Assembly (NCBI GenBank): GCA_012295275.1
Contig: CM022668.1
Coordinates: 4,402,001 to 4,466,000 of the forward strand
Source: Chrysomallon squamiferum
Taxonomy: Eukaryota > Animalia > Mollusca
Direction of reading: 5' to 3'
DNA length: 64,000 nt
Below the pieces are notes generated by a model. That model was not told where the DNA came from and searched no databases. It saw nothing but the letters and a program-made list of their open reading frames with translations. Each line of letters opens with the position of its first letter. Position 1 is the stretch's first letter. The position numbers were made by a program, and so were the translations under genes. Shown here in pieces: positions 15,285 to 63,320 of this stretch.

Positions 15285-15323
<39 letters not shown>

Positions 15324-15511: not shown

Positions 15512-15548
<37 letters not shown>

Positions 15549-19746: not shown

Positions 19747-19867
19747 ATGGCTTTGAAACTAGCGACTGTTTTACTTATTCTAGGAGGGATATGTGTTTTG
19801 AAAACTGAAGGTAAGATAGATTTGTCTACTTTTAAAATGTACGTGTGTGTTTATATATTATATATAT

Positions 19868-19923
<56 letters not shown>

Positions 19924-20411: not shown

Positions 20412-20469
<58 letters not shown>

Positions 20470-20620
20470 TATTATCTCTACTGCTACTATTATTATTATT
20501 ATTATCATGGCCGTCGTCCTTAATATTTTATTATTTTGTTCTGTCTGTTTATTACTAATTTATTACTATATTATATCTTACTTGATAATATTCATTTATT
20601 ACTAGTGCTACTACTATTTC

Positions 20621-20657
<37 letters not shown>

Positions 20658-20771
20658 ATTATAATTATATAGCCACTGCTTCTGCTACTAATACTGTTAC
20701 TACCACTGCTATTATTTCTATTGTTATTATTATTATTAATATTAATATTATTACTATTATTATTATTATTA

Positions 20772-20804
<33 letters not shown>

Positions 20805-20882
20805 GTAGTAGTAGTAGTAGTATTTCTGTTATGATTATTATTACTATTATTATTATTATTAGCAGTAGTAGTATTAGTATTA

Positions 20883-20920
<38 letters not shown>

Positions 20921-21045
20921 TATTACTATTATTATTAGCAGTAGTAGTATTAGTAGTGTTACTGTTATTATTATTATTATTATTACTATTATTACTATTA
21001 TTATTATTATTAGCAGTAGTAGTATTAGTAGTATTACTGTTACTA

Positions 21046-21076
<31 letters not shown>

Positions 21077-22008
21077 TATTACTATTATTATTAGCAGTAG
21101 TAGTATTAGTAGTGTTACTGTTATTATTATTATTACTGTTATTGTTGTTGTTGTTGTAGTTGTTGTTGTTGTAACTGGCAGGTTTCGGTGTGGTGTCGGA
21201 GACAGAGTTGAGGTCAGATCTGATGACGAACTACTCGAGCAAAGTGCGTCCCGCGGGGACAGTCAACGTGCAGCTCCTCTTTCAGCTCCTCACAGTCAAC
21301 TTGCTGGTGAGTGTCGGGCTGGGCGTGGTCGGTCACTGAACCCCTCCCAGAGTTACTTGACGAGGGGTGGGGGGGCAAGATATTACATCACCTTGTAACT
21401 CGTTAACACACAAATCAGGATAGATATAAACAATGCGTGTCAAAAGTCTGAATATTATCTTGTGGTAGTTTTATTACGATTGGTTACCAACCTTTGCTAA
21501 TAATAAAGGATATTTTTTGTTTAAATAGTTAGTTTCTGTTTCAGTTTCGAAATCGTCCATGACGTCACATATTTTATGATGTCAAAGATCAGTTATGTTT
21601 TCTTTTATCATAGTTCAGTAGAAGGTTTTGAGGCGTTTGCATATTTTATTTTATTTTTTTGTTTTATTTAATATTATTTTATTTTAATTTTATTTTATAT
21701 TTGTTATTCTGCAGTTATAATTAGTTATTAAGCAAAACTTTGCGTCGAAGTCAGTTAAAGTCAGAAGGAACTATTGAGAAAATTATTAATTATGTTTATG
21801 TGTAGTATAAACCACCAAACCTACCACCAGCCAAAATGATCATCTCCATCATCATTTTTCTGTCTATAACGCACTGATGAAAAGATATTGCTTCTTTCTA
21901 AGAATAACTGACAAGACTCGACAAAATTTAAAAAGATCCTAATAAATGTTAAAATAAATCAAATATTAACCACAAATTATCCCAGTTTTACATTAACTGT
22001 TATTAGAT

Positions 22009-22039
<31 letters not shown>

Positions 22040-22385
22040 GTACACCCTAACAAATAATAACCAGTTTTATTTTTTTGTTTTTTATAATCCTGATTTGAGG
22101 GAGGAAATCCGATTCTAATTATAATATTCAGATATTCAATGCTTCGTAATTATTAGAAGATTAGTTTTGTATAATTAAATGTTTACTTGTCTTTCGTTTC
22201 AGGATGCCAGAACACAAACATTCTCTGTTTCTGGAATATTTACCATGGTGAGTATAATTTGGAAATAACTTTTAGTCATTATAACTGACTTATCGATTCT
22301 CGTGCATAAATTATGTTAATTATAATCTGTTACAGTGCTTTATGATTATTATTTTTATTGTTGTTGTTTTTATTATTATTATTAA

Positions 22386-22426
<41 letters not shown>

Positions 22427-23081
22427 TTATTATTGTTATTGTTATTGTTATTGTTATTATTATTATTATTATTATTATTCTGGTTATTATTATTAACATT
22501 ATAGCCACCTACGTAAACTGCTCATACAGAAGTTAAATTGTTAACATTTGGAAACACAATGAAAAATCTTTACCGCATTAAAATAATCCCTTCCAGTGTT
22601 TTATTGAAATCAGGTCAAGCAAACAGAACTTTTAAAAGTATTATGTTCACCTATGAACATCGGATATGTTGTTATATTCCCCCTGTGAAATAAACTAATT
22701 AACTCACACTGTGAGGTCAGCCTCGTAACAAAGACGTGCGCTTTTTGCGTGTTGATGTCTTCCTATCCGTGACGTTCAGTGCTAATCCGTTTGTACTTGT
22801 TACCATGTTCATAATACACAGCTAGGTAAACAGAAACTAGACACACCGATGAACTTGTAGATATATAATCAGAGGGAGAAGCCGACAGACAGACAGATAG
22901 ACAGACAGACAGTCAGATAGATAGAGAGAAAGATAGATAGACATATAGACAGTTGGAAAGACAGACATTTTCTACATAGCAACTTACCTATGTATTTATA
23001 TTTCTTTATCTCTCTGTTTTTCTGTATATCTGCCTGCCAGCCTACCTACCCATCTACCTATCTATCTATACTGTTTATTTT

Positions 23082-23117
<36 letters not shown>

Positions 23118-23168
23118 CTCACATAATATCTTTCTGAGAGAGAGAGAGAAAGAAAGAGAGAAAGAGAG

Positions 23169-23220
<52 letters not shown>

Positions 23221-23673
23221 TCTAACAGCCTCCATTTTAAAGAGAGAGAGAGCAGAGAATATGTTTATGAGAGAGAGAGAGAGAGATTATCATTTTGTCT
23301 AATAAACATCAATGGCTAGCATCAGTAACAATTAGGAAACCAATTATTTTGTCACTTAGTGTCACTGCGGATAGAACACATTCTGTAGTCACACGTTGAT
23401 GATTTCATTCTTTTCTGTCTACAGCTTCGACCATCACTGTCATTATTTTCTCTTGTTGCTGTTATTGACGATATTATTATTAGAACTGTTGTTATTATTG
23501 CTCATGTTCTTCAGGTTGTTGTTGCTGTTGTTGTTGTTATTGTTGTTGTTGTTGTTGCTGTTATTATTATTATTATTTGCTCTTTTATTGTTGCGGTTGT
23601 TGTTGCTGCTCTTGTTGCTGGTATTAATGTATTATTATTATCATGATTATTATTAGTACCACTATAATTGTCA

Positions 23674-23720
<47 letters not shown>

Positions 23721-23980
23721 GTTATTGTTGTTATTGTTATTATTACTGTCATTGTTATTATTATTATTTAGGTGTGGCACGAAACTCGTCTTGTTTGGAA
23801 CGAGGCTAACTATGGAGGAATAAAATTTATTTTTGCAACTGGGACTGATGTCTGGAAACCAGCATTCGTCGTGGAGAACTCGTCAGTACTTTCATAATCA
23901 TTTTTAATATACCTGTGTGTTGATTTACATAAATATATATAAATGTATGTATGTGTGTGTGTGTGTGTGTGTGTGTATGT

Positions 23981-24073
<93 letters not shown>

Positions 24074-24969
24074 GTATCCAAGTCAATACAGTTTTGTCCC
24101 AAAAAGATATTTTAGAAATTTTTCTAATCATCAATAATCAACAGAGATTGGAAAACATACATACATTCATTCATACATACATACATTATAGCATATATAC
24201 ATACATTTACTAGGTTGCACATCTTATTAGTTACATTAGGTAATTATTTTATTATTATATTTTAGGTGTCATATCTTTATTATGCTATATAAGGATTATT
24301 ATATGTTGTATATGTTTATTATTGCATAATAGGTGTCATATCTTTATTACTATATGTTAAGTTTCATGTCTCTGTTATTTATATTTTATGTATAATATAG
24401 TTTGTATTATTTATGTGTTATTATATTATTATATATTATGTTTCATTTCTTTGTTAATAATGTTATATAATGTCTTTAGCATTGTGCACTTATTACTATT
24501 ATTATTGTTAAATTTGTTTACCATCACATGATTATCTCAAAAGTATTATATTATTTATATTTCAATATTTCAACGAAAGTACAATAGTAAAAATATTTCA
24601 GTATCCATGTAATATTGTTAATTTTTCAATATCGGTGTAATATGATTAATATTTGAACATCAGTGCAATGTTATAAATATTTCACTACAATGCAGAATTG
24701 TTAATATTTCATTAACTATGGAGTTAATATTTCGGTATCAGTTAATATTATTAATATTTCAATATCAGTTAATATTGGTAACATTCCTGTATTAATGAAT
24801 ATTTTATATTCCAGTATCAAATATTATTAATATTTCAGTGTCAGTATTAATGTCGTTAATATTTCATTATTATTATTATTATTTCATCCATGTAATATTA
24901 TTATCTCAGTGTAATATTACATTATCCAGTATAAATTTATATTTCTCGTGTAATATTAAGAATATTTCA

Positions 24970-25011
<42 letters not shown>

Positions 25012-25059
25012 CATTATTATTATTATTTATATCCATTATTAACGATTATTGTTATTATT

Positions 25060-25097
<38 letters not shown>

Positions 25098-25121
25098 TAT
25101 ATCCAGTATCAACGATCTCGG

Positions 25122-25154
<33 letters not shown>

Positions 25155-25209
25155 CTCAGTGTAATATTATTTATATCCAGTATCAACGATCTCGGTGTTA
25201 TATTTCACC

Positions 25210-25270
<61 letters not shown>

Positions 25271-25625
25271 CTCAGTGTAATATGATTTATATTCCAGTAT
25301 CAACGATCTCGGTGTGATATCGGACTCGGAGGTACCGCTACGTATCGACCAAACGGGGGAGGTGGTCTGGAATCCACCCGGTATCTACGCGACCCACTGC
25401 GATATTGACATTGCCTACTACCCGTTTGATACCCAGGAGTGTTACCTGAAGCTGCAGAGCATAGGGTACAACCTGGTAGAGCTGAACATGACGGTGTTTG
25501 GAAACGGGGTGGATTTAAACGACTACAAGCCTAACGGAGAGTGGGACATGATTGAAGCAAAGTCACTGAGGTAGGGATTCGCTCTTGATGATGATGGCGA
25601 TGATGGTGCTGGTCGTAATGATGGC

Positions 25626-25658
<33 letters not shown>

Positions 25659-26000
25659 AATAATAATAATAATAAAAAAACAACAACAATAATAAAAACA
25701 TCTATATCACCATCAGAAGCATTACTATAAATGATTGCAGTACTAATAAAAGTAGTAAAAGTATATTAGACGTAATGATGTTTATTATTATCGAAAAATT
25801 ATATGTCTGTATTACTATCGCCATCATTATCGTCATCATCGTCTTCATATTTCTAATGATAATGTTCATCATCATAATCATTTTATCAATATCAATATTA
25901 TCATCATTGTCATTATTATTATTATTATTATTATTGTCATTATTCATCATCATCATTATTATTATTATAATTATTATTATTACTTTATTATATTTATTCC

Positions 26001-26084
<84 letters not shown>

Positions 26085-27470
26085 TTTGTTGTTATTATTA
26101 TTGTTGTTGTTGTTGTCGTTATCAGATCTATTGTAACCGGTTCTGTGGACGCAAACTCGTACTCCAGCGTTCTCTTCAAGTTCAAGATGACGCGGAAAGC
26201 TCAGTACTACGGCATGAACGTCGTGCTTCCCATCATGGTGCTGTCAGTGCTGTCGTCGATGGTGTTCATACTTCCGCCGGAGTCTGGTGAAAAGATGGGC
26301 TTCTCGCTCACCGTTCTGCTGGCGTTTGCAGTGCTGCTGACGTTAATCTCCGACAGCATGCCCACGACGTCGAGATCCACGTCCATCATGGGTTCGTTTA
26401 CGTTGACAACATTGTTGTTCAGATGATCGGAAATTTCGTCATCTTTGTTGTTGTTGTTATTAGTAGTATTAGTATTAGTATTACTATAACTACCAACATT
26501 ACCATCAGCATACACAGCATAAATCAATGGAGGGTTTGATAATGTAATGTCAAATATATTCATACTATGCAAGATCCACATGCATACACATCCACACACA
26601 GAGACAGATAGATAAATAAACAGACAGACAGACAGACAGACAGATCGATATTGCCATGGATTGTATGCAGTTTGAACTGTAACTGATCTGGCGAATTGAC
26701 GCTCTTTTTTTTTTTTTTTTTTTTCCTTTCATCTGATGTTTTTAGTTTCAACAGTGATCTGTCTTTATTAATTATAAAGTTATACATAAATTTGGACGGC
26801 GAGAAAGTCTATGAAAAAATGAATAAAATGGGAAGAATTTAAAAAATAATAATAATAAAAAAAAATATTAGAAAAAACAAAAACAACGCAGATTAGCGGA
26901 AAAGGTGGATGTTTAAAAGTAAAACTTTAAATGTTTATTATTGTTATTCATGATCATGTATTACAGTTAATCCTGTTGGGCTTTTTTTTTATCTTCTTTT
27001 TCTTGATATTATTTTTATTACTGCTGTTATTGTTGTTGTTGTTGTTGATAAAACCGTTGTTATTTTATACAGGAGTGTATCTTGGCTGTATTCTCTGCCT
27101 CAGCGGGTTAAGTGTCATAGCCTCGGTCTGGATCATGGTCGTGTTCACACGTGACGAGAACTCGGTTGTGCCAAGGTTGACCCAGAAAATCGTCAAAGTT
27201 GCGGCAACGATTATGCTCGTTCCGGGTTACTTGCCATGCACTAGCAAACAAAACAGAATCAATGGAGGTGGGCTTGATGACGTAATCGAAGAAAAGGACA
27301 GTAAAAGTGCAGAAAACGCGAGATCGAAGAAGCACCTGGCGTGGAGTCCGATGGATTATTCTCTCACGTGGAAAGACGTCGCTTTTATTTCAGACTGTAT
27401 ATTTTTTAGACTGTACATGTTAGCTGTGGTATCCGTGACTTTGGTCTGTTTTTTGATGCTTGGAGTCTAA
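19747..27470 (+). CDS. Cys-loop ligand-gated ion channel subunit, divergent non-alpha nAChR-like (paralog C), about 426 aa
   Basis: Exons 19747-19810 (MALKLATVLLILGGICVLKTE signal), 21182-21306, 22203-22247, 23772-23881, 25298-25570, 26126-26391 and 27073-27470 have consistent phases. Cys-loop CDIDIAYYPFDTQEC, GEW, M2 GEKMGFSLTVLLAFAVLLTLISDSMP. Confidence 0.92.
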
Positions 27471-29251: not shown

Positions 29252-30109
29252 CTCCTACAACAAATAAGTGTAAAATTGTAACTATTAATTTAGTGCAAAC
29301 ATACATTACAAGAATACATTCATACGTAAATACAGACACACATAGATAAAAAAACACATTATTTTAGAAACATACAATTTCTAACATATTTCATCCAACG
29401 TAATTTAGTTGTTAGGTTATAAAATACATACAAAAACATTTAATACATTTATACAGGAATTAATTTATATTACTGTTTATATACAGTATATGTATAGATG
29501 TATGTATGTATGTATAATGTGATACTTATATGTGAAAATATAAAACAAATAGCATGTATATATATATATTGGTTCTAATTTATTAAAATGCTGTAAAAAA
29601 TAAAATAAAAATATCCTACTTGAATCTATTTTTGTTCATTTTAAAGAGCCTACAACAAGTAAGATATCTAATATAATACATACAAACATTTATAAATACA
29701 GGAATAGGTATTCATATATGTATGTATATGTATGATGCATATATATATATATATATGCTAAATATATTTCATACAGATATCTACAGCCAGATATTTTGTT
29801 TTTACCTAGTTTTGTTTTTACCTAGTTTATAAAATATAAATATTCATTATACACTAATTTATAAAACTAATTTTTATTGTTTATATATAGATGAAGATAG
29901 ATAGATAGATTGATAGATAGACAGATAGACACAAGCGCACGCTTGTATAAATCTCTCTATCTGTCTATCCATGTCGCTTTCTGCTTGTCCGTCCCTCTAT
30001 CTGTCTATATCTATCTCTATAGATCTATCTGTGCATTATCTCTGAAATTTCGGTGATGAAATATAAAATTTTCATAAAATTGTTCAGTTCATTACAGCTA
30101 CTCCAAAAG
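29252..30109 (+). pseudogene. Orphan micro-exon relics of the same family
   Basis: ag|CTCCTACAACAA|ataagt (29252-29263, dead donor), ag|AGCCTACAACAA|gtaag (29647-29658) and ag|CTACTCCAAAAG|gtaaat (30098-30109). No upstream signal exon was found. Confidence 0.55.
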
Positions 30110-31293: not shown

Positions 31294-32348
31294 ATGAAAA
31301 TATTTCTATTTGTCGTCGTCGTAGCATGTTTGACTATTTGGAGTCACATGGAAGTTGGTGGGGCAGACATTTCTGGCACAGCTGCAGTGAAAGGTAAATT
31401 TATTTCTTTATAGTTTAATTTAAGCGATCCTGAAATGTAACTTCCTTTTTTTATTATTATTATTTTTTTTTATTTATTTTTTTTTTTTGTGGGAAGGGGT
31501 TATTAGGCAATTTTTGATTGTTATTTGTTATTTCCTTATTGTTGTTTTAATTTCTGATTTTCTTTTTACTTAACTACATATATTAAATTTCGTATTTCCG
31601 TTTATTGATGTGATTTTTTTTTTTGTACCTGATATAAAGGATCTTCTAAAATAATTTCTTTATACTTCAAAGTTTTTTTAACTGTTTTTAAATTTTTTTA
31701 ACTTATTTCATCAATGATTTATTACTCACAATAAAGTAATGTTTTTAACAAAACAATTGCACGCCGCCATTTTACTTTCACAAATGAATTCCTACAGTCC
31801 ATAACACAACTCCTAAATTTGTAATGAAATACGAAATTAGTGAACAGAGACTTTGGAACTTTTAAGTTAGTTTGTTGTCTGAGGAATCCGAAAAATTGAT
31901 GGACATTATCGATTCGTAGTTTTTTTGCTATTTAATAAATATCTGTGCAATGGCTATACCTCTCAAATAAATTTACCTAGACATACGCAATTACTATTAT
32001 TTTCTTCTTGACAGTTCTTCATATTATTATAATTGGTTTAATGGAGTAAAGAAGATTAATGGAAACATGTTTCATGATATAGCTCAAGAGATAGCAGTTT
32101 ATGTGTCCATAAAAACAGCTAAATCAAATGGAATTGTATAATTTGAATAAACAAATTACTGCAATATTATTAAATTTATACTGAAATCGAGAGGTTATGT
32201 AAAAAAATCTATAAAAATCTAAATCCGAATCGATCAGGGATTTAGAAAAAAACACTGTATGTAGCATTTAATATTCCTTAGGAAGGGCGTTTTTTTTTAA
32301 ACTGTATTTCTTTTATATGTGAAAGTGCCTACCACAAGTCAGATTTTA

Positions 32349-32394
<46 letters not shown>

Positions 32395-33262
32395 ATTTAT
32401 TTTCACTATTCTCATTAGATATACATAGATACATACATACATAGCTACATGCATATATTATTTATTTCTCTTTTATGTTAAAGCGCCTACAAGTAAGTCT
32501 TTATTATTATTGTTCTTATTATTATAGTTATTATTATTATTGTTATTCTTGTTATTATTATTATTATTATTATTATTCAATTTGTTTTCACGATTCACAT
32601 TACATATAACTTTATACATACATCCATACATACGTACATACATAGATACATACATAATTACATACATTTATACATGTGTAGATACACAGATACATTTATA
32701 CATATGTAGATATACAAATACATTTATACATATGCAGATATACAAATACATATATTGATCATGACAAATCAATTTCATCACACCTATATTCCAACATATG
32801 AAATAAAATGCATAATGTGTGAAACACTAAAAATAGTGTTTATTCTTTCAAATGACGCTAAAAATCTTTATTAAATTTGAAATTCAAATTTATTTATTTT
32901 TTCTTTTTGTTCTTTTTGTTGTTGTTTGTTATTGAAGCTTTTACAACAAGAAAGTTTGTGTTCTTTTTTAAATTCATTTAATACACACCTTTTTTTATAT
33001 ACATACATACGTACATACATCAAACACATATACATATAATTATACATGAAAATATATTTGTGCTTGATATTTGTATACCTCTGCTTTTTTTCTTTCATAT
33101 TTTTCTTCTTTTTTTTATATTGAAGCGCCTACAAGTAAGTTTTCTAATTATTAATTTATCTTTGTCTTTCATATATAGATACTTACATATATGCATATTC
33201 AAACAGGAAAACACAACAACAAAAACAACAACAACAACAACAACAACAACAATAACAACAAC

Positions 33263-33318
<56 letters not shown>

Positions 33319-35191
33319 CTTAAACCTACAGGTTATATAAACAGTTCTATAAAAATCCAAATCAATCAGGGATTTGGGGGAAACAGTTATATGTAGCAGA
33401 CACATTTTAGATTCCTTAGGCAGTCCTTTTTGTATAATTTTTTATTTTATATTTTATTTATTTCTCTTATATGTTAAAGCGCTTACAACAAATAAGTATT
33501 TATTGTTGTTGTTGTTGTTGTTATTATTATTATTATTATTTTTATTTTCACGAACTCATTAGATATTAACACACACACATACATACATACATACATAATA
33601 TATGCATACATACATACATACATACATAGATACATATATTATTTACTATTTATTTCTCTTATATGTTAAAGCGCCTACAACAAACAAATCTATTATTATT
33701 ATTGTTATTGTTGTTGTTTTTATTATTATTTATTCTTATTTTCTTCTTCTTCTTCTTCTTCTTCTTATTATTATTATTCAATTTGTTTTCATGATTCACA
33801 TTAAATATAACTATATATATATACATCCATACATACGCACATACATAATTACGTACATTCATACATATGTAGGCATACAGATACATAAACTGATGAATGA
33901 CAAATCAGTTTCATCACACCTATATTCCAACATATGAAATGAAATGCATAATGAGTCAAACACTAAAAATAGTGTTTATTCTTTCAAATGCTGAAAATCT
34001 TTATTACATTTGAAATTTAAATTTATTTCTCTTTTTCTTCGTTGTTGTTCGTTACTGAAGCTCCTACAACCAGTAAGTTTTTGTTCTTTTTTTAAATTCA
34101 TTTAATAGAGACCTATATATACACATACATACATACATACATACATACATACATACATACATACATACATACATACGAACGTACATACATACACATGAAA
34201 ATATATTTATGCTTGATGAATATGCTTCATGAGTTTATATCTAATAATTGTTGTATTAAACAAAACTTATGTAACCACAAAAAAATAGTTTGTAATGTTA
34301 AAAATCTCTTTGGAAAACGTGATTAGATTTGAAAGATAAAACTATTTCTGATGTTATTTATTTATTGATTGACTGATTTATTTGTTGTTTATTTGTTTGT
34401 TTATTTATTTATTTCTGTTTCATATTGAAGCTCTTACAACACATATGTATTTCTTTTAAATTCATTTAACACAGACCTTTTTATACATATATATATACAA
34501 ACACATACATATAATTAAACACACACATTTTCTTAATATATTAAACAAAATTTATGTAATCACTAAAAATAGTTTCAGTGTTAAAAACCTCTCTGGAAAA
34601 TGTAATTAAATTAGAAAGATAAAATTATTTATGATATTTATGCATTTTATTATTATTTATTTATTTATTTATTCATTTATTTATTTATTTTTCTGTTTTA
34701 TATTGAAGCTCCTACAACAAGTAAGTATTATTTTTTAAATTCAATTACCAGAGACCTTTTGAAATACATACGTACATACATACATACATACATCAAACAC
34801 ATATACATGAAAATACAATTGTTCTTGATGAATATACTTGATGAGCTTATATCTCATATTTTTTTATATATTAAAAAGAAATTATTTGAAATGTTAATAC
34901 CTAAAAATAGTTTGTAATGTCAAAAATCTGTTTGGAAAACATAATTAAATTAGAAAGTTAAAACTCTTTCTGATTTCTGCTTTTGTTTTTTTTTTTTTTA
35001 TATTGAAGCGCCTACAACAAGTAAGTTTTCTAATTATTAATTTATCTTTGTCATTCATATATAGATACTTACATATATGCATATTCAAACAGGAAAACAC
35101 AACAGCAACAACAACAACAACTATAATAATAATAACAATAAGCACAATAATAATAATAACAATAAGCATAATAATAAAAATAATAATAATG

Positions 35192-35252
<61 letters not shown>

Positions 35253-35586
35253 CAGAAACCTACAAGTTATGTAAACAGTTCTACAAAAATTCAAATCAGG
35301 GATTTTGGGGAAACCGTTATACGTAGCAGAAACATTTTAGATTCCTTAGGCAGGGCTTTTTGAATGATTTTTTATTTTATATTTTATTTATTTCTCTTAT
35401 ATGTAAAAAAGCGCTTTCAACAAATACGTCTTTATTGTTGCTGTTGTTGTTGTTATTATTATTATTATTTTTTCACGAACTCGTTAGATATATACACATA
35501 CATACATACATACATACATACTTACATTAATATATTATTTATTTATTATTTCTCTTATATGTTAAAGCGCCTATAACAAATAAGTC

Positions 35587-35619
<33 letters not shown>

Positions 35620-35764
35620 TTCACGAACTTATTAGATATATACATATACATACATATATATACATACATATTTATTTATTATTTATTTCTCTTATATGTT
35701 AAAGCGCCTACAGCAAGTAAGTCTATTATTATTATTGTTGTTGTTTTTATTATTATTATTTCTT

Positions 35765-35795
<31 letters not shown>

Positions 35796-36381
35796 TTATT
35801 ATTATTATTATTATCAGCCATTTGTTCTATGTAGAATCATTTCTGTTTTGTCAGTGTCATTGTTTACATTTTTAGCAATAACAAATATCTAAAAAAAAAG
35901 TGTCATTCTTAGGTTAGTAAATGTTTTCTTCCTATGTCTGTACATGCTCTACACGAACGTTTTACACGTGTGTCTCTTCGTGTATGCTATACGTATATTG
36001 AAATATATGTTTTATACAAATGTTTTACACAAATGTTGGTAAACGTTTTAATCATATGTTTCTATATATTTAATACAAATGTTCACTGCAGATTATACAC
36101 ATACTTGACTTGTGGCAGCTTTTTTTTAAAGTTAATACAGAGTGTTGTTTTACCTGTTGTTTATAAGCATCATTTCTGTGATGTTTCAGTGTGTGAGTAC
36201 ACGTATGAAACAGTTGCTGCCTGTGACGCAGATGACGGTGACGTAATCAACGATGGTCAGTGCCCGGGGAACGATGACGTGTGTTGCAATGGTAAATTCG
36301 TATCTTCAACTGTGTCTGTCTGTCTGTATGTATGTATGCCTGTACGTGTATCTGTATCCCTACGTACGTATGTATGACAAA

Positions 36382-36412
<31 letters not shown>

Positions 36413-36565
36413 GTATGTGTTTATATATCTATGCATACATGTGTGCGTGTATGCATATATACATATATATATATAAATGTTTCTCTAGGTCATCCATCAA
36501 CAACTTAGTGTACCTCGTCTCTGAGCTATGTCGCGGCAGAAGAGTTATTTAACACTAATATTGTT

Positions 36566-36608
<43 letters not shown>

Positions 36609-36688
36609 ATGCGTGTATGTGTGCCTTTACCTGTCAAAAATCTATATTTCTTAAATTCTGTTCTCTTCTTATTTTTCTTATAGTTTAA
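31294..36688 (+). CDS. Secreted micro-exon protein D: signal peptide, TPTT mucin-like stalk, acidic beta-defensin-like (5-Cys) domain, about 94 aa
   Basis: Exon 1 31294-31393 (MKIFLFVVVVACLTIWSHMEVGGADISGTAAVK, phase 1). AG/GT micro-exons at 32326-32337, 32484-32492, 33126-33134, 34061-34072, 34709-34720, 35009-35020 and 35705-35716. A 102-nt exon 36190-36291 encodes CEYTYETVAACDADDGDVINDGQCPGNDDVCCN. The last exon starts at 36684 (V-stop TAA at 36686-36688). Confidence 0.72.
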
Positions 36689-37084: not shown

Positions 37085-43312
<6,228 letters not shown>

Positions 43313-43550: not shown

Positions 43551-43602
43551 TCACGTGATCTGTTTTCTTGACACGTTCGCACATCTCAGTAATATTTATA
43601 AG
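43551..43602 (+). promoter_or_regulatory. Putative core promoter of gene E: TCACGTGA (43551-43558) plus TATAAG (43597-43602)
   Basis: Conserved with the gene F promoter; about 70 bp upstream of ATG 43667. Confidence 0.5.
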
Positions 43603-43666: not shown

Positions 43667-45284
43667 ATGAAACTACTTCTACTTATCGCCGTCGTCGTAG
43701 CATGTCTGGCTACAGTAGAGTCACATGGAAAATTGCGTCACTGCAGACGAAGGTAAATTTATTTGTTTTATTCTATAAATTAGGCGATCTTGAAATTAAC
43801 TTCGCAATTCAAAGTAACCGGTTTTTTAGTTGTTTTTTTAAAAATATGTTTTATAATTAATATATATTTTTTTTCTTGTTGTGTCACTCCAGTGTTTGTT
43901 TTCTTGTTGTCCTTTGTTTATTTTTATTTATATTTATTTAATTTTTTTTTTGTAATATATATATATATTTTTTTTTTCATTCCTTCTTGAGCTTTGACAA
44001 GATTATTGAGCTTTTGTATACAAAAACATGTACATACATATACAAAAAGATCCATAAAAAAAAAAAAAAAAATAAAAGAAAAGAAAATAAAAGAAAAAGA
44101 AAAAGAAGAAGAAAAGGTTTGTTAACACCCAAGTTAAGTTTAAAACTGATTATTATTGATTGTTTAATGTAATAATAATGAAATTCGGTATCTTACAGAG
44201 AGAATAAAAGAAATATAGAAAAATATGAAAGTAAAAGTATGATTGCTAAAAAGATATACAGCAAACAAGCTAAGTCATTTTACGTAAAGAAATATATAAT
44301 ATATTATTTCAATAATGATCTTCAAAAAGGTGAAACCATTTTCTCCATTCTCCATTATATTTGTCACATTCGCAATTTTAAAAGTAAATAGATCAGTCTG
44401 TATGAAATTTACTTTGCAGTTTACTTTTAATAATATTAATATTATCATAATTACCAAATAAAATAAATATGATAATTTGTATTAATTATTAGCCAGTTAA
44501 CTGCATATACTTGGTTTATTTCAGAACTAATCCTTTCCACAAAACAGTATTTTTTGTAACACATTACTGATATTTCAATAGGCGAAATTTTCATTCATGC
44601 ACTGTTTTCTGTACAGTTTTAATTTTATGACAATCATAAAATAAAATTAAAATAAAAAATAAAAAAGTAAAAATAACTTTTAGGAGCATGTTTGTAAAAA
44701 AATACTTTCATCAGAATCTAAGTTTTATGTAAAACAGTGGATACTTAAACCATGACAAGCTGAATCTTTCAAATGCTTTTTTTTTTTTAATTATTTTATT
44801 TATTTAATTATTATTATTTTTTTTTTTTCTAAATACATTTTATAAAACATTACGATTCATATTTCTATGTTTAGTTTTCGTGGATTTGTAATGATTGTAA
44901 CAGATAAGTGATTATGTTATTAATTTTTGAAGAATTGTTACTCCATTCAGCTGCCTGATTCACCAAATGTTAATAAAATTCTTAATTTGCTTGATTTTAG
45001 ACAAAAATTAGACTGTAGTATCTGTTTTAAGGTAAAAATGTACAACAAGTAGTAATCCTGTACTAACTTTCAACACTCTGGGAATATTACACTTGATACG
45101 GTTAATTTTAGGCGTGAAATTTCAGCGTAATACTCAAGTTTGTCATTGCACTGCTCAGACACATAGAAGTTTTTTCAAGAATGAAACTGGTGTCATCAGC
45201 ATGTTACGATATCAAATATTCAGTACCATCTCATATCTTTGTAATTTCCCAGTAAAATTTCGACACATATTTAATGAAGAAAAG

Positions 45285-45324
<40 letters not shown>

Positions 45325-45900
45325 TGACTGGAAGTCTCTTTCTCTGTAGCATGAAAGTTTCTGAAAGAAAATCATTTTGTAGCAGTTTGCATATCAGATG
45401 TTTGTAAAAGATTTCTATCCAGCATTTTATAAATTATTTAAATTTAAACATATAACTAAAAGATCAGGTATTTCAAGTATATCAGTGTTTTTCAGTGATT
45501 ATAACAGACGTATGTTGTGTATCAGCGATACTTCCTTCCAGTTGTTTAGAAACTGTTCTGGTTTATTTGTTTCAAGTCTACACGCTATAATAACACGTTT
45601 TACTTATCTGAACCAAGGGATTCTGTCATTTTTCATGTTTTTAAAGAGTAAAACATTTCTATATAACATATTTACTTCTTCAATGGTTAACTTTCTAAAA
45701 ATGATATTTACTTAGATGGTGCTATTTCATTGGTTAATTTTGTCTTGTTCTAATATATCCAGTTACTTGTTGATCGTTTTCTTCCAGTTCATGATGATCT
45801 CAATTTCTTTTGTTTTTCTCTTTTTCAATAAATACTGAATATGAAATCGTATAGTTCTGGGATTTTATTTTATTATATTTTTTTTTTTTTTTTATTTATT

Positions 45901-45954
<54 letters not shown>

Positions 45955-46622
45955 TTTATTTATTTATTTATTTGTTTATTTATTTTCCTTTAAAACGTCT
46001 CTTTGGAACTTTTGAAATTTTTCTGCAGAACAGTAAGCCCATACGAGATCAAAGTAAATAAACAAAGACGTTTGAAAATGTCCGAGATTATCCGATATAT
46101 CACACTGTAATACTAATGAATGAATGATATAATGAATAAATGAATGGATGAATGAACGAATGAACGAATGAATAAATAAATAGACAAACAAAAGAAAACA
46201 AAACAAAAAATAAAATGTTTAGACACACTCTCTTCTCAACGTAGAATAATCTTTTAATTTCATTTAATTTATCGTCATCATTATCATGATTACAACATCT
46301 TCATCACCATCAGTAAATGAATAAATAAATAAATATTGTAATTAAATATTATTTCATTTTCAGACTTAAATTACTGAAGACAAAACTCTGTGTTCTAAAC
46401 AAGGAACTTGATGAATGCGAATCGAAAAGTAAGATATAAGTATAGATATTAGTATAGTTATATTATATCAGTTTCTACTTTATTTTCCTTTACATCTGAT
46501 CTGATATGTGTACTATTAAATTATAATTTATTTCTGTTAATTTTAAAACAACTAAAATAAAAAGGGTGATTTCAATAACTGTTCAGTCAAATTACGGGTA
46601 CACAAAGAAAATCTAATATTAC

Positions 46623-46719
<97 letters not shown>

Positions 46720-47177
46720 TAAGATATATACTAATTGAGTATTTTTCCTAAATTATTTTTGTTTTGTAGCTACCACTACAGGTGAGTTTTTTTTTTTATT
46801 CTGTCTTTATTCTTCTACTGACATTGAAACACGCAGCAAAACACCCAGCTACTTGTTATATTACCAATCGGCAATTATGCACAAACATACGTACATACAT
46901 ACATACATACATACAAACATACATACATACATACGTACATACATACATACATACATACATACATACATACATACATACAAAAGCCACTGGAGACGATGAC
47001 GTTGACGTCGATGTTGTGGAGTCAAGATTCATCTTCTGTCTGGTTGGATGTCGTAGATTGATGATTTCATCAGTGTGACCTCGCTCGTGACCTCTGGCGC
47101 TGGGGGTGGTACGGGCTGGGAGGGGTGTTGGCTGTAACCTGTTTCACACATGTACGATTCAGATCACACACGCACAC

Positions 47178-47217
<40 letters not shown>

Positions 47218-50093
47218 ACACACACATATGTACGGGCATAAATACAAACTAAAGCTTGTTTTCTAACGTATTTTTTATTTCTACTTTATATAGAGGCGTC
47301 TACAACGAGTAAGTTTTTTTAATTATTTATTTATCTTCTGCTCTCTGATATAGATATTTAAAAATGCATACACTTATACGTACAGAAAGAAGGAAATACA
47401 TATACATACATACGTACATACACAGATTCATACATACAAATTTGATACAGTAGAATATTTTGTCATGAACACATAAAGATCTGCCTAAATAATTTAATGC
47501 ATGATGAACAAATTGCATCACATGTATATTTGACCATATAATTTGACTTTGTGAAACATTATTAAATTTGAAATTAAAATCTATTTCTGATGATTTATTG
47601 TGTGTGTATATATATACACTAAAAATTAATACCTTTATACAGATATACATAGATACACACACACATACACATATATACATACAAACATACATACATCAAA
47701 CACATATACGTGAAACATATATTTGTCCTTCGTGAATATACTTCATGAGCTTATATCACACATTTCTTAATATAATTAAACAAAAGTTATGTAATCACTC
47801 AAAATAGTTGGTAATGTACAAAATATGTGTGGAAAAAAATAATTAAATTAGAAAGCTAAAACTATTTGCGATTTTTTGATTTTATTTGATTATTTGAATT
47901 TTTAAACATTATATTAAAGCGCCTACGACAGGTAAGTTTTTAAATTATTAACTTATCTTCTTTATTCATATGTACATAACCAAATATGCACTACATGAAC
48001 ATCCACATACACACACACATACACACATGTATACATACACACACACATACATATATATACAGGTACAGATACATAAATACATAAATTCATTCATACGTTT
48101 ATGTCTGATTACTAAATAACATTATATGTATTTTTCATCTTTCTTACCTTGTTAAATATACCGAATACACACACACATACAAAGAAACAAACACACACAC
48201 AAACAAACAAACAAACACACACACAAACAAACAGACGCACATAGACTTTATTTACTTTGATATTTTGATTATTTCAATTTAAAAAAAAAATTATATTGTA
48301 GCCCCTACTACAAGTAAGTTGTCTAATTATTCATTTATCTTTCACATTCATATGTACACAACTAAACATACACTACACGCACGCACACACACACACACAC
48401 ACACACGCACATATATATACAGACTCACACAGACGTACACACACATACATACAGATATATACAGATACACATACATAAATACATAAATACATAAATTCGT
48501 TCATACATTTATGTCTGATTAGTAAATAGCATCATATCTATTTTTTATCTTTCTTACCTTGTAAAATATACCGAATACAAACACACACACACGCACACGC
48601 ACACACAAACAAACACACGTACATACACACCCACGTTTTTATTGTTTAAAATATTAACTAAAGCTTGTTTTCTAACATATTTTATTTCAATTTTACACTG
48701 AAGCGCCTACAACAAGTAAGTTTTTTAGTTATTGATTTATCTTCTGCTTTCAGATATAGATCTTTAGACACGTACACTGAATGTATAAATGACCATATAA
48801 ATTAACGTATATATATATATATATAGTTCAGGAGCTTATATCACATATTTCTAAATATAATTAAACAAAAGTTAAGTAATCACTAAAAATAGTTGGTACT
48901 GTAAAAAATAAATAAATTAGAAAGCTAAAACGATTTCTGATTTGTTTATTTGTTTATTTTTTTATAATTTGCATTTTTTAAATTATATTGTAGCGCCTAC
49001 AACAAGTAAGTTGTCTAATTATTCATTTATCTTTCGCATTCATATGTGCATAACTAAACATACACTACACGCTCACACAGACACACATATATATACAGAC
49101 TAACACACACACACACACATATATACAGACACACACACATACACACATATATATACAGACACACACACATACACACATATATATACACACACATACATAC
49201 AGATATATACAGATACACATACATAAATACATAAATACATAAATACATAAATTCATTCATACATTTATGTCTGATTAGTAAATAGCATCATATCTATTTT
49301 TATCTTTCTTACCTTGTAAAATATACCGAATACAAACACACACACACGCACACGCACACACAAACAAATACAGACACAAAGAAACACACACAGAAACAAA
49401 CACTCACGCACACACAAACAAACACACGCACATGCACACCCACGTTTTTATTGTTTAAAATGTTAACTAAAGCTTGTTTTCTAACATATTTTATTTCAAT
49501 TTTACACTGAAGCGCCTACAAGTAAGTTTTTTAATTATTTATTTATCTTCTGCTTTCAGATATAGATCTTTAGACACGTACACTGAATGTATATATGTAT
49601 ATATGACAATATAAATTAACGTATATATATATATATATATATAGTTCAGGAGCTTATATCACATATTTCTAAATATAATTAAACAAAAGTTATGTAATCA
49701 CTAAAAATAGTTGGTACTCTAAAAAAATAAATAAATTAGAAAGCTAAAACGATTTCTGATTTGTTTATTTTTTAATTTTTTTATAATTTGCATTTTTTAA
49801 ATTATATTGTAGCGCCTACAACAAGTAAGTTGTCTAATTATTCATTTATCTTTCGCATTCATATGTGCATAACTAAACATACACTACACGCTCACACAGA
49901 CACACATATATATACAGACACACACACACATATGTATACACACATACACACAGATATATATAGATGCACATATATAAATACATAAATACATAAATTCATT
50001 CATACATTTATGTCTGATTAGTAAATAGCATCATATCTATTTTGTATCTCTCTTACCTTGTAAAATATACCAAACACATACACAAACCAACAC

Positions 50094-50130
<37 letters not shown>

Positions 50131-50554
50131 ACACATACAAACTTACACACGCACATTCACACACACGTTTTTAATTGTTTAAAATGTTAACTAAAGGTTG
50201 TTTTCTAACATATTTTATTTCAATTTTACACTGAAGCGCCTACAAGTAAGTTTTTTAGTTATTTATTTATCTTCTGCTTTCAGATATAGATATTTAGACA
50301 CGTACACTGAAAAATAAAGAAAAATACATCCAAATATACGTAGAGAAAGAAAAAACGTACACATATATAACATACATATGTACATACACACAGTCATACA
50401 TACAGATTTGATACAACGGAATATTCAGTTCTGAACACATACAGATCTACCTGCATAAGTTAATGAATGATGAAGAAATTGCATCACATGTATATTTGAC
50501 CATATGAATTGATGTGAAAGATTATTTGAATTAAAATCTATTTCTGTTTTATAC

Positions 50555-50588
<34 letters not shown>

Positions 50589-50895
50589 AAGTGCTAAAAA
50601 TTAAAACTAATTTTTATTATTTAAACATATACGTTAAACATATTTGTCCTTGGTGAATATACTTCATGAACTTATATAACATATTTCTTAATATAATTAC
50701 ACAAAAGTTATGTAATCACTAAAAATGGTTGGTACTGTAAAAAATAATAAAATTAGAAAGCTAAAACTATTTCAGATTTTTTGATTTTTTGATTATTTGA
50801 ATTTTTTAAATTTATATTGTAGCGCCTACGACAAGTAAGTTGTCTAATTATTAATTTATCTTTCACATTCATATGTACACAACTAAACATACACT

Positions 50896-50928
<33 letters not shown>

Positions 50929-51156
50929 CACATACACACACACACACACATATATACACATACACATACACATACACACACATATATATATATAGAGAGA
51001 GACACACACACACACACACACATATATATACACACATACATACAGATATATACAGATACAAATACATGAATACATAAATTCATTCATACATTTATGTCTG
51101 ATTACTGAATAACATGATATGTATTTTTGATCTTTCTTACCTTGTTAAATATACCG

Positions 51157-51231
<75 letters not shown>

Positions 51232-53367
51232 ACAAACAAACAGACGCACATACACTTTATTTACTTTTATTTTATTTTTTGATTATTTGAATTTTTTAAA
51301 TTATATTATAGCGCCTACGACAAGTAAGTTGTCTAATTATTAATTTATCTTTCACATTCATATGTACACAACTAAACATACACTACACGCACACATACAC
51401 ATACACACACACATATATACACTCACACACATATATATACACTCACACACATATATACACTCACACACATATATATACATATATATACACTCACACACAT
51501 ATATACACATACACACATATATATACACTACACGCACACATATATACACTCACACACATATATATACACACATACACACAGATATATACAGATAAACATA
51601 CATAAATACATAAATTCATTGATACATTTATGTCTGATTACTAAATAACATCATATGTATTTTTGATCTTTCTTACCTTGTAAAATATACCAGACACACA
51701 TACACACAAACAAACAAAAACACACACACACACACAAATAAACACAGACACACAAACAAACACACATACGTTTTTAATTGTTTAAAATGTTAACTAAAGC
51801 TTGTGTTCTAACATATTTTATTTCAATTTTATATAGAAGAGCCTGCAAGTAAGTTTTTTAATTATTTATTTATCTTCAGCTTCCAGATATAGATATTTAG
51901 ACACGTACACTGAAAAATAAAGAAAAATACATCCAAATATATGTACAGAAAGAAAAAACGTACACACATTATAACATACATATGTACATACACACATTCA
52001 TACATACAGATTTGATACAACGGAATATTCAGTTCTGAACACATACAGATCTACCTGTATAAGTTAATGCATGATGAACAAATTGCATCACATGTATATT
52101 TGACCATATGAATTGATGTGAAAGATTATTTGAATTAAAATCTGTTTCTGATGTTTTATTCTATATATATATACACACACACACACACACCCTCACACAA
52201 AGTGCTAAAAATAATTTTTATTATTTAAACTATCGTTGAAACTCTTTATTAAATTTGAAGCTAACACCTATTTTAACACATACACATATATTTGTCCTTA
52301 ATGTTTATTCTTTCAAATGACGTTAAAATCTTTATTAAATTTGAAATTTAAATTTACTGATCTTTTTTCGTTTTGTTCTTTTTGTTTCTGTTTGTTATTG
52401 AAGTTCGTACAACAAGTATATTTTTGTTCTTTTTTAAATTTATTTAATACATACCTTTTTTATACATACATACATCAAAACCACATACATATAATTACGC
52501 ACGACAATACATTTGTCCTTGATGAATACACTTCATGAGCTTATATCTCATATTTTTTAATATATTAAACAGAAATTATGTGAAATGCTAAACACTAAAA
52601 TAGTTTCCAATGTTAAAAACATTCTGAAAACTTAATTAAATTAAAAACTTAAACCAATTTCTGGAATCTTCTATTTTTTATTTTATTTATCAGCCTGCAA
52701 AAAGCAAGTTTTCTAATTATAAATTTAACTTCTGCATTCATATATAGATACTTAGATAAATATATATATATTCAAACGCGAAAAAGGCATGAGCAACAAC
52801 GACAAAAAAAAAAAAAAGAAAAAAAAAAGAAAGAAAAAGAAAACAATAACAATATCCTTTTCACGACAACCAGCACACGATCATTAAAACGCACAGTGCG
52901 AAATAACACACGTGCGCCTCTTATTTACATGTTTCTAAATACTGAGTGTGAATGTTCCCTGCAGTTCTTGTATCCTTCTTGTTTGTCCTCAGCTGGAAGT
53001 TTTTCTTTGTTTGTTTGTTTGTTTTTTTTTTATATTTAATATTTATTTATTTTTTAACATTGTCTGTTGTTTTACCTGTTCTTTTACTTTTCAGTATGTG
53101 AGTACTCCTGCGTGAGAAAAGCTCGTTGTGAAAAGTTGGGCGGTGAAGAAATTGAAGGTGGTATTTGCGAGAAGGACTATTCTGTGTGTTGCAAAGGTAA
53201 TTTGACACACACACAGATACTCACACACACACACGCACACACATACACACACACACAGACACACAGACGCATACAGAGAAAAATTCTCTTTTGTGTTGTT
53301 CATCTAACGCCTTGCATCCTGCCTCCTTGCTATTTTCTCACTGTCTATCCATCTATATTTTATATTA

Positions 53368-53438
<71 letters not shown>

Positions 53439-53545
53439 GATAGATGTTATGTGTATGTATACTTTTACATATTATCAAAGTTTTAAACTTTGTAAAATGC
53501 GGTTTGCTTCTTATTTTAATTTTAGTTGAAAGCGAAGAGTATTGA
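43667..53545 (+). CDS. Secreted micro-exon protein E: signal peptide, Cys-capped coiled coil, micro-exon-encoded Thr/Pro stalk, 6-Cys beta-defensin-like domain, about 140 aa
   Basis: Exon 1 43667-43752 (MKLLLLIAVVVACLATVESHGKLRHCRR, phase 2). Exon 2 46364-46428 (LKLLKTKLCVLNKELDECESK). Phase-1 micro-exons at 46770-46781, 47294-47308, 47920-47931, 48302-48313, 48704-48715, 48994-49005, 49513-49521, 49813-49824, 50237-50245, 50823-50834, 51312-51323, 51840-51848 and 52404-52415. A 102-nt exon 53095-53196 encodes CEYSCVRKARCEKLGGEEIEGGICEKDYSVCCK. The last exon is 53526-53545 (VESEEY*). Confidence 0.8.
44450..45860 (-). mobile_element. Degenerate non-LTR retrotransposon (L1/Tx1-like) reverse-transcriptase fragment in intron 1 of gene E
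   Basis: Minus-strand translation gives decayed RT motifs in order: MKNDRIP (K-SPG-DG-like), WIEIFYK...LQNDFLSETFMLQR, YLIS*HADDTSFIL (YADD box, 45192-45203), LEYYAEISRLKIN, KIKQIKNFINIW. Many stops and frameshifts; boundaries approximate. Confidence 0.75.
47240..52760 (+). repeat. Complex tandem array of intron+micro-exon units (two unit types; ~0.7-0.8-kb higher-order period)
   Basis: Alternating units tttatttcaattttacactgaag[CGCCTAC(AAC)AA]gtaagtttt and aattatattgtag[CGCCTACAACAA]gtaagttgtctaatt; spacing e.g. 48704/49513/50237 and 48994/49813. Confidence 0.88.
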
Positions 53546-57622: not shown

Positions 57623-57769
57623 CTGTCCATTGTCATTTGGAAATCTCAGTTCTCTGTTGTAAAGTTTAGTTTATTGATTGAAGTTGATTAGAAAATGTTG
57701 ATTAGAACTTTAGCAGAACATGATCTCGGAAATGCACCATAACACATATAATATTCTGAAACGTGTTTC

Positions 57770-58018
57770 ATACAAATATTAGTAAACGTTTTATTCATAT
57801 GTTTCTGTATACTTAATACAAATGTTCCCTGTTGTTTATACATACTTGATTTATGGCAGCTTTCTTTTTCATAATATTTTGTGTTATTTTATGGCTTTTT
57901 TTATTATTAATTTTTTTATAACATGGTTTCTCTTATTTTTCAGAGTGTATGCGTTTGAATATGTTCAGTGTGTAAATCAAAGTTTCTATTTGTGAAAGTT
58001 TTATGCCTCTCTCGCTCG

Positions 58019-58108
<90 letters not shown>

Positions 58109-58286
58109 ATATATGTGTGGTTATACAAATAGATAGATATTTTTATATAGTACTAAATATTAGTATTGTTAAAATCGGTTTCCTTCTTATTTTTCGTTTG
58201 TTTGAACAAAGACAGAACAGCAGTACGAGTCACACAAATTACAATTCCTACTTTACAGTTGTAACTAAAAAAATAAAAGACCTATC

Positions 58287-58320
<34 letters not shown>

Positions 58321-58530
58321 AATTGTTTCCTATAATAAGATATACTATTATCTGTAATAAAACATAATTTTACATGCAATAATATATAGCTTAGTATGAC
58401 GTAATAGTCTTTGTTTTTTGTTATTGGTAATCTGTTGCACTTATTAATCTATTGTGAATTATTTATATATTTTTTTTTTATATAATTTCCAAACTGCTAG
58501 AAAGATCGACACATATACACACATACAAGG
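57770..58530 (+). pseudogene. Decayed 3' end of a further D/E-family paralog
   Basis: 57770-57945 resembles the intron preceding D's Cys exon (36030-36189). 58165-58530 resembles the D/E last exon and 3' UTR (gaacagcagtacga...ttcctactttacagtt). The Cys exon itself is deleted or degenerate. Confidence 0.55.
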
Positions 58531-58557
58531 ATATATGCATTTTTCTATCTATCTATC

Positions 58558-58666
<109 letters not shown>

Positions 58667-58869
58667 ACATACACACACACGCTATTCATGAGAGGTCAAG
58701 GATCAAAACTACTTGTGCAAATAAAAATACGCCATTAAGCTGAAGCTGTGACGACTAATGACAGATTATTTATTTGATGTCTCAAGAACAGAAAACCTTT
58801 GTTTGGAAACTAGTTCACCACCCAGATGGAGAAAATCATGCACCCCAAACATCATGTTCACGCATGTAG

Positions 58870-59160
58870 TAGAAACGTCAGCAACTGGTGTAGCCACCAT
58901 CATCATCATTCAAACATTTCTGACAACGTCGTCGTCGCATGCTGTTAACCAGGTGTTGGAAGTAGTTGCTGAGCCGATGGCTGCTGGATGTTGACGGCAG
59001 GGACGGGATGTGATGGAACTCCCCGCCCTGGTTTATCCCAGTGTGGGTGACTGCACTGTTGAATTATGCAGGCGAATGCATATGCTGAACTTTCTACTGC
59101 TGCAGGAAATCAGTGACCACTCTGGGGCTTGCGTTGTGGTCACGGAACCAAGCTCATGGT
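58870..59160 (-). mobile_element. Degenerate Tc1/mariner transposase C-terminal fragment
   Basis: The minus strand reads RDHNASPRVVTDFLQQ*KVQHMHSPA..., HWDKPGRGV..., YFQHLVNSMRRRRCQKCLNDDDGGYT. These match the Tc1 consensus segments DNARPH...VVTDFL...WPA, HLWDELGRRV and LVNSMRRRCQACI...GGHTRY. Confidence 0.75.
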
Positions 59161-59288
59161 CCAGTATACACACACATACATGTAAATACATAATGTCTAT
59201 GTGCATTGTAATCAGCTGTACGAAAGTCAGACAAGTTTTATACATAAATACATACTAGGATCCAGAGGACAGTCAGAAATATATCTCA

Positions 59289-59429
<141 letters not shown>

Positions 59430-60136
59430 TATATACTTACATAGCTATATGCATGGTATATTGATGTGTGGCTTTCACATTTCAACAAACATACATTTCT
59501 TCTTACTTTATAAAATATTAGCATCTATTATATAGTTTTTTTGTTGTTTAAAATATCTGATGGTCTTTTCTATTTATCTTGAAGCTCCTACAACAATTAA
59601 TAATTATTTGAAATTATGCTTTCATATACAGACACGCAGAAAACTACATACAAACATAGACAGAAAGGAATATTTGTTTTATTTGTTTCTGTTTTAGATG
59701 GTTAAAATAGACTGTTTTTGAAAAACACAGCACAACTGTACAAGAGAGAAACATTAACAGTCAGAACTTTATGCTTTTAACTGTAATGAAATATACTTTG
59801 ATCTATAACAAAATACACTCTAATCTTAATAAAATATTCTTTTATCTGTAATAAAATACACTTTGATATTTAATAAAATATTCTTTTTTCTGTACTAAAA
59901 TATCCTTTTACTTGTAATAAATATACTCTTACCTGTAATAAAATATCCTAATACATATTTATAATGACATTAAAATATATTCCATTTATACCAGATCTGA
60001 TTAACTTATACCACATACCCTTTCTCCCGATTCTATATAATACATACAATGTGTATGTATATATCAATCCGTGTATTTTTGTTTTGTTTTTGTGCGTCTA
60101 TGTGCATCATATGTTCGTATATATGTACGTGTGTGT

Positions 60137-60656: not shown

Positions 60657-63320
<2,664 letters not shown>

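Follow-up and report, generated by a model that had tools for sequence, protein, structure and literature searches.

What might a gene encode in which thirteen consecutive exons measure just 9, 12 or 15 nt, and are such exons used at all? This question is raised by gene A, a repetitive-looking locus of ~10 kb on the + strand of a 64,000-nt stretch of Chrysomallon squamiferum DNA (assembly GCA_012295275.1, contig CM022668.1, positions 4,402,001 to 4,466,000), which we refer to as the window and whose coordinates are used throughout. Our best explanation, which as a whole we consider moderately probable, is that gene A specifies a secreted gastropod protein with a coiled coil, a spliced-in Thr/Pro stalk and an acidic head of defensin fold; from their sequence features, it is highly probable that the micro-exons are truly included in transcripts. 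In the protein predicted for gene A, which belongs to a small tandem family, coiled coils capped by Cys would link several chains. A Thr/Pro stalk, likely O-glycosylated, would serve as the spacer that holds out a predicted acidic head of beta-defensin fold, a likely module for multivalent binding in mucus or extracellular matrix. Most of the intact micro-exons would probably be spliced in by means of short flanking introns and strong donors, and some skipping may be tolerated without a frameshift.

Structure of gene A and its predicted protein

The gene A model comprises 17 exons with canonical splice sites, all introns being GT-AG. Its joined frame is open over 140 residues and matches the peptide assembled in a first-pass annotation of this DNA. 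A TATA-like box (43597..43602) lies 70 nt 5' of the ATG, at a distance similar to that seen in the paralogues B (31214) and C (9651) described below. Exon 1 (43667..43752; 86 nt, phase 0-2) encodes a predicted signal peptide and the first Cys of a heptad module, and exon 2 (46364..46428; 65 nt, phase 2-1) encodes a leucine heptad with two Cys, predicted to form a coiled coil. Beyond the micro-exons lie a Cys exon (53095..53196; 102 nt, phase 1-1) with six Cys in the pattern C-x3-C-x5-C-x12-C-x6-CC, and the last coding exon with its stop (53526..53545), followed by AATAAA/ATTAAA-type signals at 53670 and 53694. The array is flanked as first annotated, by the signal-peptide and 65-nt exons on one side and the 102-nt Cys exon on the other. 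We excluded from the model a 4-nt AG..GTAAG site of the first intron (near 46030), whose use would break the frame.

All thirteen micro-exons are phase 1-1 and divisible by three in length, as had been claimed for the intact copies. The first (46770..46781; 12 nt, TAG/GTGAGT) has unique flanks, while the remainder belong to three unit types. Type X contains micro-exons 2 (47294..47308; 15 nt), 5 (48704..48715; 12 nt), 7 (49513..49521; 9 nt), 9 (50237..50245; 9 nt) and 12 (51840..51848; 9 nt, or 12 nt via a tandem acceptor at 51837, both in frame). Type Y contains micro-exons 3 (47920..47931), 4 (48302..48313), 6 (48994..49005), 8 (49813..49824), 10 (50823..50834) and 11 (51312..51323), each of 12 nt, and type Z, which is common to gene B, contains micro-exon 13 (52404..52415; 12 nt, with a weak GTATAT donor). 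Of the approximately 14 motif copies first noted at intervals of 300-630 bp, 13 on the + strand have both AG and GT, whereas the 14th (52692..52703; 10 nt counted from the nearest AG) is decayed and has a GC donor, and start-to-start spacing is 290-626 nt, with flanking introns of 278-679 nt. The donor is GTAAGT in 11 of the 13 micro-exons, with GTGAGT and GTATAT once each; across the + strand of the window, only 27 of 3337 GT dinucleotides begin a GTAAGT. Micro-exons make up 150 of the 423 nt of coding sequence (35%), and skipping all 13 leaves an open frame of 90 residues.

Judged by hydropathy only, residues 1-19 resemble a signal peptide, with a hydrophobic core reaching to about residue 17 and Kyte-Doolittle means of 2.6-3.8 for the 9-residue segments starting at residues 1-9. 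Across the exon 1/2 junction, residues 26-47 place C26, L30, L33, L37, L40, L44 and C47 at heptad a/d positions, an arrangement reached by 25 of 20000 shuffles. The equivalent positions in paralogue C read C-L-M-V-L-L-C (16 of 20000 shuffles), and because the register is kept in this diverged paralogue, the junction between exons 1 and 2 is supported. Based on these patterns, the sequence suggests that exons 1-2 encode a disulphide-linked coiled coil. The N-terminal module is basic (10 basic vs 4 acidic residues) and has an odd third Cys. A cluster of basic residues, R24 and R27-R29, lies beside the first Cys (43736-43752 and 46364), with R-Q-R there in paralogue C; this cluster could be a convertase site.

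The proposed Thr/Pro stalk is borne out by composition, with 32 Thr, 10 Pro and 1 Ser among 51 residues, and is a likely target of O-glycosylation. For the head, a model folded from a two-sequence alignment gave a predicted local distance difference test score of 83.6 and a predicted strand-helix-strand-strand order. In a structure comparison with 48161 chains, Z>=2 was reached by just three, each of them of defensin type (best Z 3.0, root-mean-square deviation 1.5, 30 aligned), although these scores lie under the trust level of the tool; the top row from Foldseek was likewise a defensin, at a non-significant E of 3.8. The model resembles beta-defensins, in line with the defensin-like head of the first-pass annotation, and a fold of this type is likely rather than established. 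The gene A head has six Cys and that of paralogue B five, and hand counts from the translations show both to be acidic (10 acidic and 6 basic residues in the A head plus tail, 9 and 0 in B). Antimicrobial defensins have a cationic mature peptide, and neither of these heads has that character. The earlier annotation had missed the predicted coiled-coil module with its Cys caps, as well as the paralogues and the DNA-level change in stalk length.

Growth of the array and its paralogues

As a control for chance, we scanned for AG-(6-24 nt)-GTRAG sites with a T-rich, AG-free upstream tract in four family regions and in the rest of the window. Site length was divisible by three in 19/19 cases within the family regions and in 7/18 elsewhere (3/7 on the + strand and 4/11 on the - strand). 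Clustering by flanks assigned the 31 micro-exon copies of the window to 10 lineages, eight of which hold an intact copy; the 13 gene A copies are thus not independent observations. The repeating unit is one micro-exon with its introns and microsatellites, 290-626 nt in all, and the units of gene A run in the order unique, X, Y, Y, X, Y, X, Y, X, Y, Y, X, Z. Since flank identities group the units, and the young units are 91-98% identical in their flanks, the array can be seen to have grown by tandem duplication of exon-plus-intron units, partly as an X-Y pair.

Besides gene A, the window holds two paralogues (B and C) and two remnants (D and E), all on the + strand. Paralogue B (31294..36688) has 13 micro-exon copies, seven with a GT donor and six with the donor lost, and an acidic head with five Cys. 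Its exon 1 (31294-31393; 100 nt) has a 1-nt deletion relative to A, it has no exon 2 (a search inside its first intron gave no candidates), and the frame is open over 94 residues as assembled. With this deletion, which exactly offsets the lost 65-nt exon 2, the reading frame runs on through array and head; the deletion could be a compensatory change, a coincidence (1 in 3) or an assembly error. The alternate frame at the end of B exon 1 still resembles A and C, which leaves three options for B: a derivative that has been compensated, a copy in decay, or a mis-assembly.

Paralogue C (9716..11578) has a TATA box, an exon 1 without ATG and a 65-nt exon 2 with the conserved heptad, followed by phase-1 exons of 24, 24 and 12 nt, and possibly also of 3 nt, before it is cut off by an inverted duplication. 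Two possible 3-nt exons were seen (10992-10994 and 11307-11309, + strand), with a CAG acceptor and GTAGGT/GTAAGT donors; they would keep phase 1. Remnant D (29252..30109) consists of three 12-nt copies, one of them without a donor, and remnant E (57740..59596) of a decayed Cys-exon start with a B-like upstream intron, an A-like 3' region and one donor-less micro-exon copy. Positions 1-600 of the window, beside a 200-N gap, are 94% identical to the first intron of paralogue C (10045-10391), hinting at another family copy upstream. As read from the DNA of these genes, the number of units and the loss of donors give each paralogue a different stalk length, and regulated splicing is not needed for the differences between genes.

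Use of the micro-exons and rival readings

Several features of the array are consistent with micro-exons that are spliced in and translated. Exon lengths differ solely by multiples of three, and only 3 of 26 intron indels adjoining them are such multiples. In 50 pairs of intact 12-nt copies, with flanks at background (52% vs 54.6+/-3%), mean exon identity is 72%, a value inflated by the choice of copies outside gene A for their motif similarity. For the 12-nt copies of genes A and B, the counts of distinct synonymous and non-synonymous changes are 9 and 7 where the copy is intact and 0 and 5 where it lacks a donor (one-sided p 0.039). We take this synonymous excess as suggestive of selection rather than as strong evidence.

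A number of points weigh against our explanation, in addition to the low fold scores and inflated identity given above. The selection signal weakens to p 0.059 once copy 12, of 9 nt, is counted as well (9/9 vs 0/5) and to p 0.08 over all genes (11/14 vs 0/5), and the change from 12 to 9 nt removes a single unit of an ACA repeat, which could reflect slippage. AAG, a weaker acceptor, precedes 6/13 micro-exons, or 5/13 if copy 12 takes the upstream TAG; it is the acceptor of type X units, those of type Y having mostly TAG. Between A and B, the proportions of non-synonymous and synonymous differences in the head exon (pN and pS) are 0.41 and 0.37, with one Cys gone in B, and constraint on the head is supported for its Cys frame only. 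Accelerated head evolution was considered and set aside, given that pN is close to pS and the introns adjoining the head are unalignable between A and B. Gene A is likely a real gene, whose exon structure, frame, tandem origin and differences from its paralogues can be read directly from the sequence; we infer transcription, micro-exon inclusion, secretion, and the binding of multivalent heads in mucus or matrix, and likewise the oligomer state, glycosylation, ligand and tissue.

In one rival reading, gene A makes a 90-residue product from four exons, the array being a skipped intronic minisatellite that carries an ancestral exon and its splice sites, or else the locus is a recent pseudogene. 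Omission of all 13 micro-exons would indeed stay in frame, the young units are so alike in their flanks that intact sites need no selection, and the relatives are damaged (C without its ATG, B without exon 2 and six donors, D and E as remnants). Against this, the core and both splice sites persist in eight lineages whose flanks have diverged towards background, 13 of 14 donors are kept in gene A, and the synonymous excess in intact over donor-less copies, albeit weak, points the same way. We consider this reading improbable. An alternative that accepts the gene model treats gene A as a diversifier like the micro-exon genes (MEGs) or SmPoMuc of schistosomes, in which micro-exons are often skipped in varying combinations, so that a single animal makes a graded series of stalks differing in length and glycan load, and this variation is the selected function. 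All 8192 micro-exon subsets are in frame, as the first-pass annotation had foreseen, and would give 1600 distinct stalk peptides of 47 lengths; the AAG acceptors and the one weak donor would fit some leakiness. There is also precedent, in that SmPoMuc transcripts vary in repeat number (PMC2576457) and MEG variants are reported as confirmed by proteomics (PMC5825161). However, the symmetric phase that had been read as a pointer to skipping is a precondition for the survival of any tandemly duplicated exon and follows from duplication alone, so it is no evidence of skipping and does not discriminate. Constitutive inclusion fits the 11 of 13 perfect GTAAGT donors and the short introns, and most of the exons encode the same tetrapeptide, so that length alone would vary. 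Neural micro-exons regulated by eMIC/Srrm234 have a long AG-free zone, a UGC near the 3' site and, in Drosophila targets, a weak 5' site (PMC8797185); in gene A, an AG-free zone of 28-117 nt precedes 12/13 micro-exons, but a UGC lies within 40 nt upstream in only 2/13, and donors are strong. Frequent, selected skipping is possible but less likely than not in our view.

The same gene structure could instead serve a structural or mineral-binding matrix protein of shell, scale or mucus gel rather than a microbe-binding defence factor. The acidic heads, the basic N-terminal module of A and its odd third Cys, free for cross-links, are all compatible with such a role, whereas the defensin-type fold, the fast-diverging head and the birth-and-death family are typical of host-microbe interaction genes; we hold a matrix function to be a minority possibility. 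The likelihoods given here are not exclusive, because the skipping and matrix readings share the gene model with our best explanation. In its boldest form, the skipping reading would have a free-living snail independently evolve schistosome-style variation, with combinatorially skipped exons of 3-4 residues setting up to 47 stalk lengths, and so the reach in mucus of bouquets of disulphide-linked defensin-fold heads at a host-microbe surface; this we regard as rather unlikely.

Surroundings, relatives and known designs

The window is AT-rich eukaryotic DNA, and the suggestion that it came from a mollusc agrees with a neighbouring gene. Exon 3666-4202 encodes a Cys-loop ligand-gated channel (Pfam). 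Among its named relatives, one from Gigantopelta aegis ranks first (71% identity), after which come mainly Gigantopelta paralogues and Haliotis at 52-56%, a pattern that makes a gastropod source likely. Three Cys-loop channel genes, resembling nicotinic acetylcholine receptors, were seen at 2290-8180 (+), ~12480-16000 (-) and 19747-27470 (+). The middle gene repeats the first in opposite orientation (82-92% identity in blocks) and truncates paralogue C; this arrangement may reflect a genuine inversion-duplication or else a haplotype or assembly effect. Downstream of the family, 60657-62970 (-) holds a fibrinogen C-terminal domain gene (PF00147, E 6e-21, last exon), a common immune/lectin class in gastropods. 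Long pentanucleotide satellites lie in a channel intron (CATAG-type, 4230-6620) and between paralogues B and A (TCACT-type, 40680-41220).

Homologue searches used single-exon stretches, two with short intronic flanks, and are insensitive for that reason. Word searches for lengths 96-2000 and 29-95 gave no homologue, and Pfam matched 0/5 and 0/2 family peptides. A profile search of 1.84 billion representatives gave two matches, both long repeat proteins over a 14-position stretch, which were rejected; the ESM Atlas returned one unnamed match (0.77) and none usable, and a PDB sequence search with a family stretch gave one match at E 5.8. One locus among 141 candidates from a metagenome scan was dismissed as chance (a 64% GC contig, 10 residues matched, no BLAST hit to the window). 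When the Cys exon with short flanks was searched against read runs, no contigs matched in any of the four, even in the run with 35% of the words; with the Cys exon as the sole exon covered, this result carries no information and does not speak for silence of the locus. The literature searched, which lacks most subscription papers, showed no paper on a molluscan micro-exon mucin, and the passages of PMC7142155 consulted say nothing on this locus.

Gene A and its relatives likely form a gastropod family, so far undescribed, whose mucin stalk is encoded by tandem micro-exons. Should these exons be spliced in, this would be an undescribed secreted family with no homologue in the searches made, about one third of its coding sequence would be invisible to open reading frame finders and ordinary read mapping, and the tandem-exon mucin design would reach beyond schistosomes with much smaller exons. 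The gene also provides a natural test of two questions: how exons of 9 nt are recognised when thirteen lie in a row, and whether splicing, or instead the number of DNA copies and the loss of donors, governs the length of a mucin.

How does this architecture compare with known systems? The MEG label fits poorly. Schistosome MEGs, particularly the O-glycosylated MEG-4.1 and MEG-8, have a longer 5' signal-peptide exon and central symmetric exons under 36 bp, with a T/S/P-rich disordered region and, at the C-terminus, a distinct motif for which target binding has been proposed (PMC5825161, PMC4671649); several are T/S/P-rich and predicted to be O-glycosylated (PMC4671649). Gene A shares the layout, with all 13 symmetric micro-exons between longer exons and a predicted 5' signal peptide, but its micro-exons supply 35% of coding sequence, compared with ~80% in symmetric exons of 6-36 bp in MEGs (PMC5825161). 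Furthermore, they are near-identical tandem duplicates together with their introns, there are Cys modules predicted to fold at both ends, and the host is a free-living mollusc.

For the head, beta-defensin-fold peptides are the sole structural matches: platypus DLP-1 (1b8w) and DLP-2 (1d6b), the AvBD11 C-terminal domain (6qet) and crocodile CpoBD13 (7t9q). It shares with them six Cys ending in CC and, by prediction, a strand-helix-strand-strand order, and differs in its first spacing (C-x3-C), net acidity, position on a mucin stalk, lack of a Pfam match and Z of at most 3.0. At the level of whole-protein layout, collectin/ficolin-type bouquets and mucin-stalked receptors combine an N-terminal Cys and oligomerising segment with an extended stalk and a C-terminal binding head. 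The predicted gene A protein has a comparable layout, but its stalk is mucin-like and micro-exon encoded instead of collagen, and its head is neither of the lectin nor of the fibrinogen type.

The closest known design is SmPoMuc of Schistosoma mansoni, in which a 27-bp exon and its introns recur in ~1 kb units that are >93-94% identical, and repeat number varies among transcripts (PMC2576457). Both systems have a short exon with flanking introns in tandem, microsatellites within the units, an S/T/P repeat, and a multigene family arranged in tandem, some of whose members are truncated or probably pseudogenes. In contrast, gene A has exons of 9-15 nt in units of 290-630 nt, of several diverged types alternating X/Y, and its array lies between a Cys-capped heptad and a head of ~35 residues. 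SmPoMuc is a 15-exon gene with demonstrated glycosylation and a C-terminal region of 234 residues (PMC2576457), whereas the C-terminal part of gene A has ~39 residues in two exons. The unique parts, compared by their descriptions, differ in size and make-up, and gene A is not a member of the SmPoMuc family, although it shares with that family its nearest known plan of construction.

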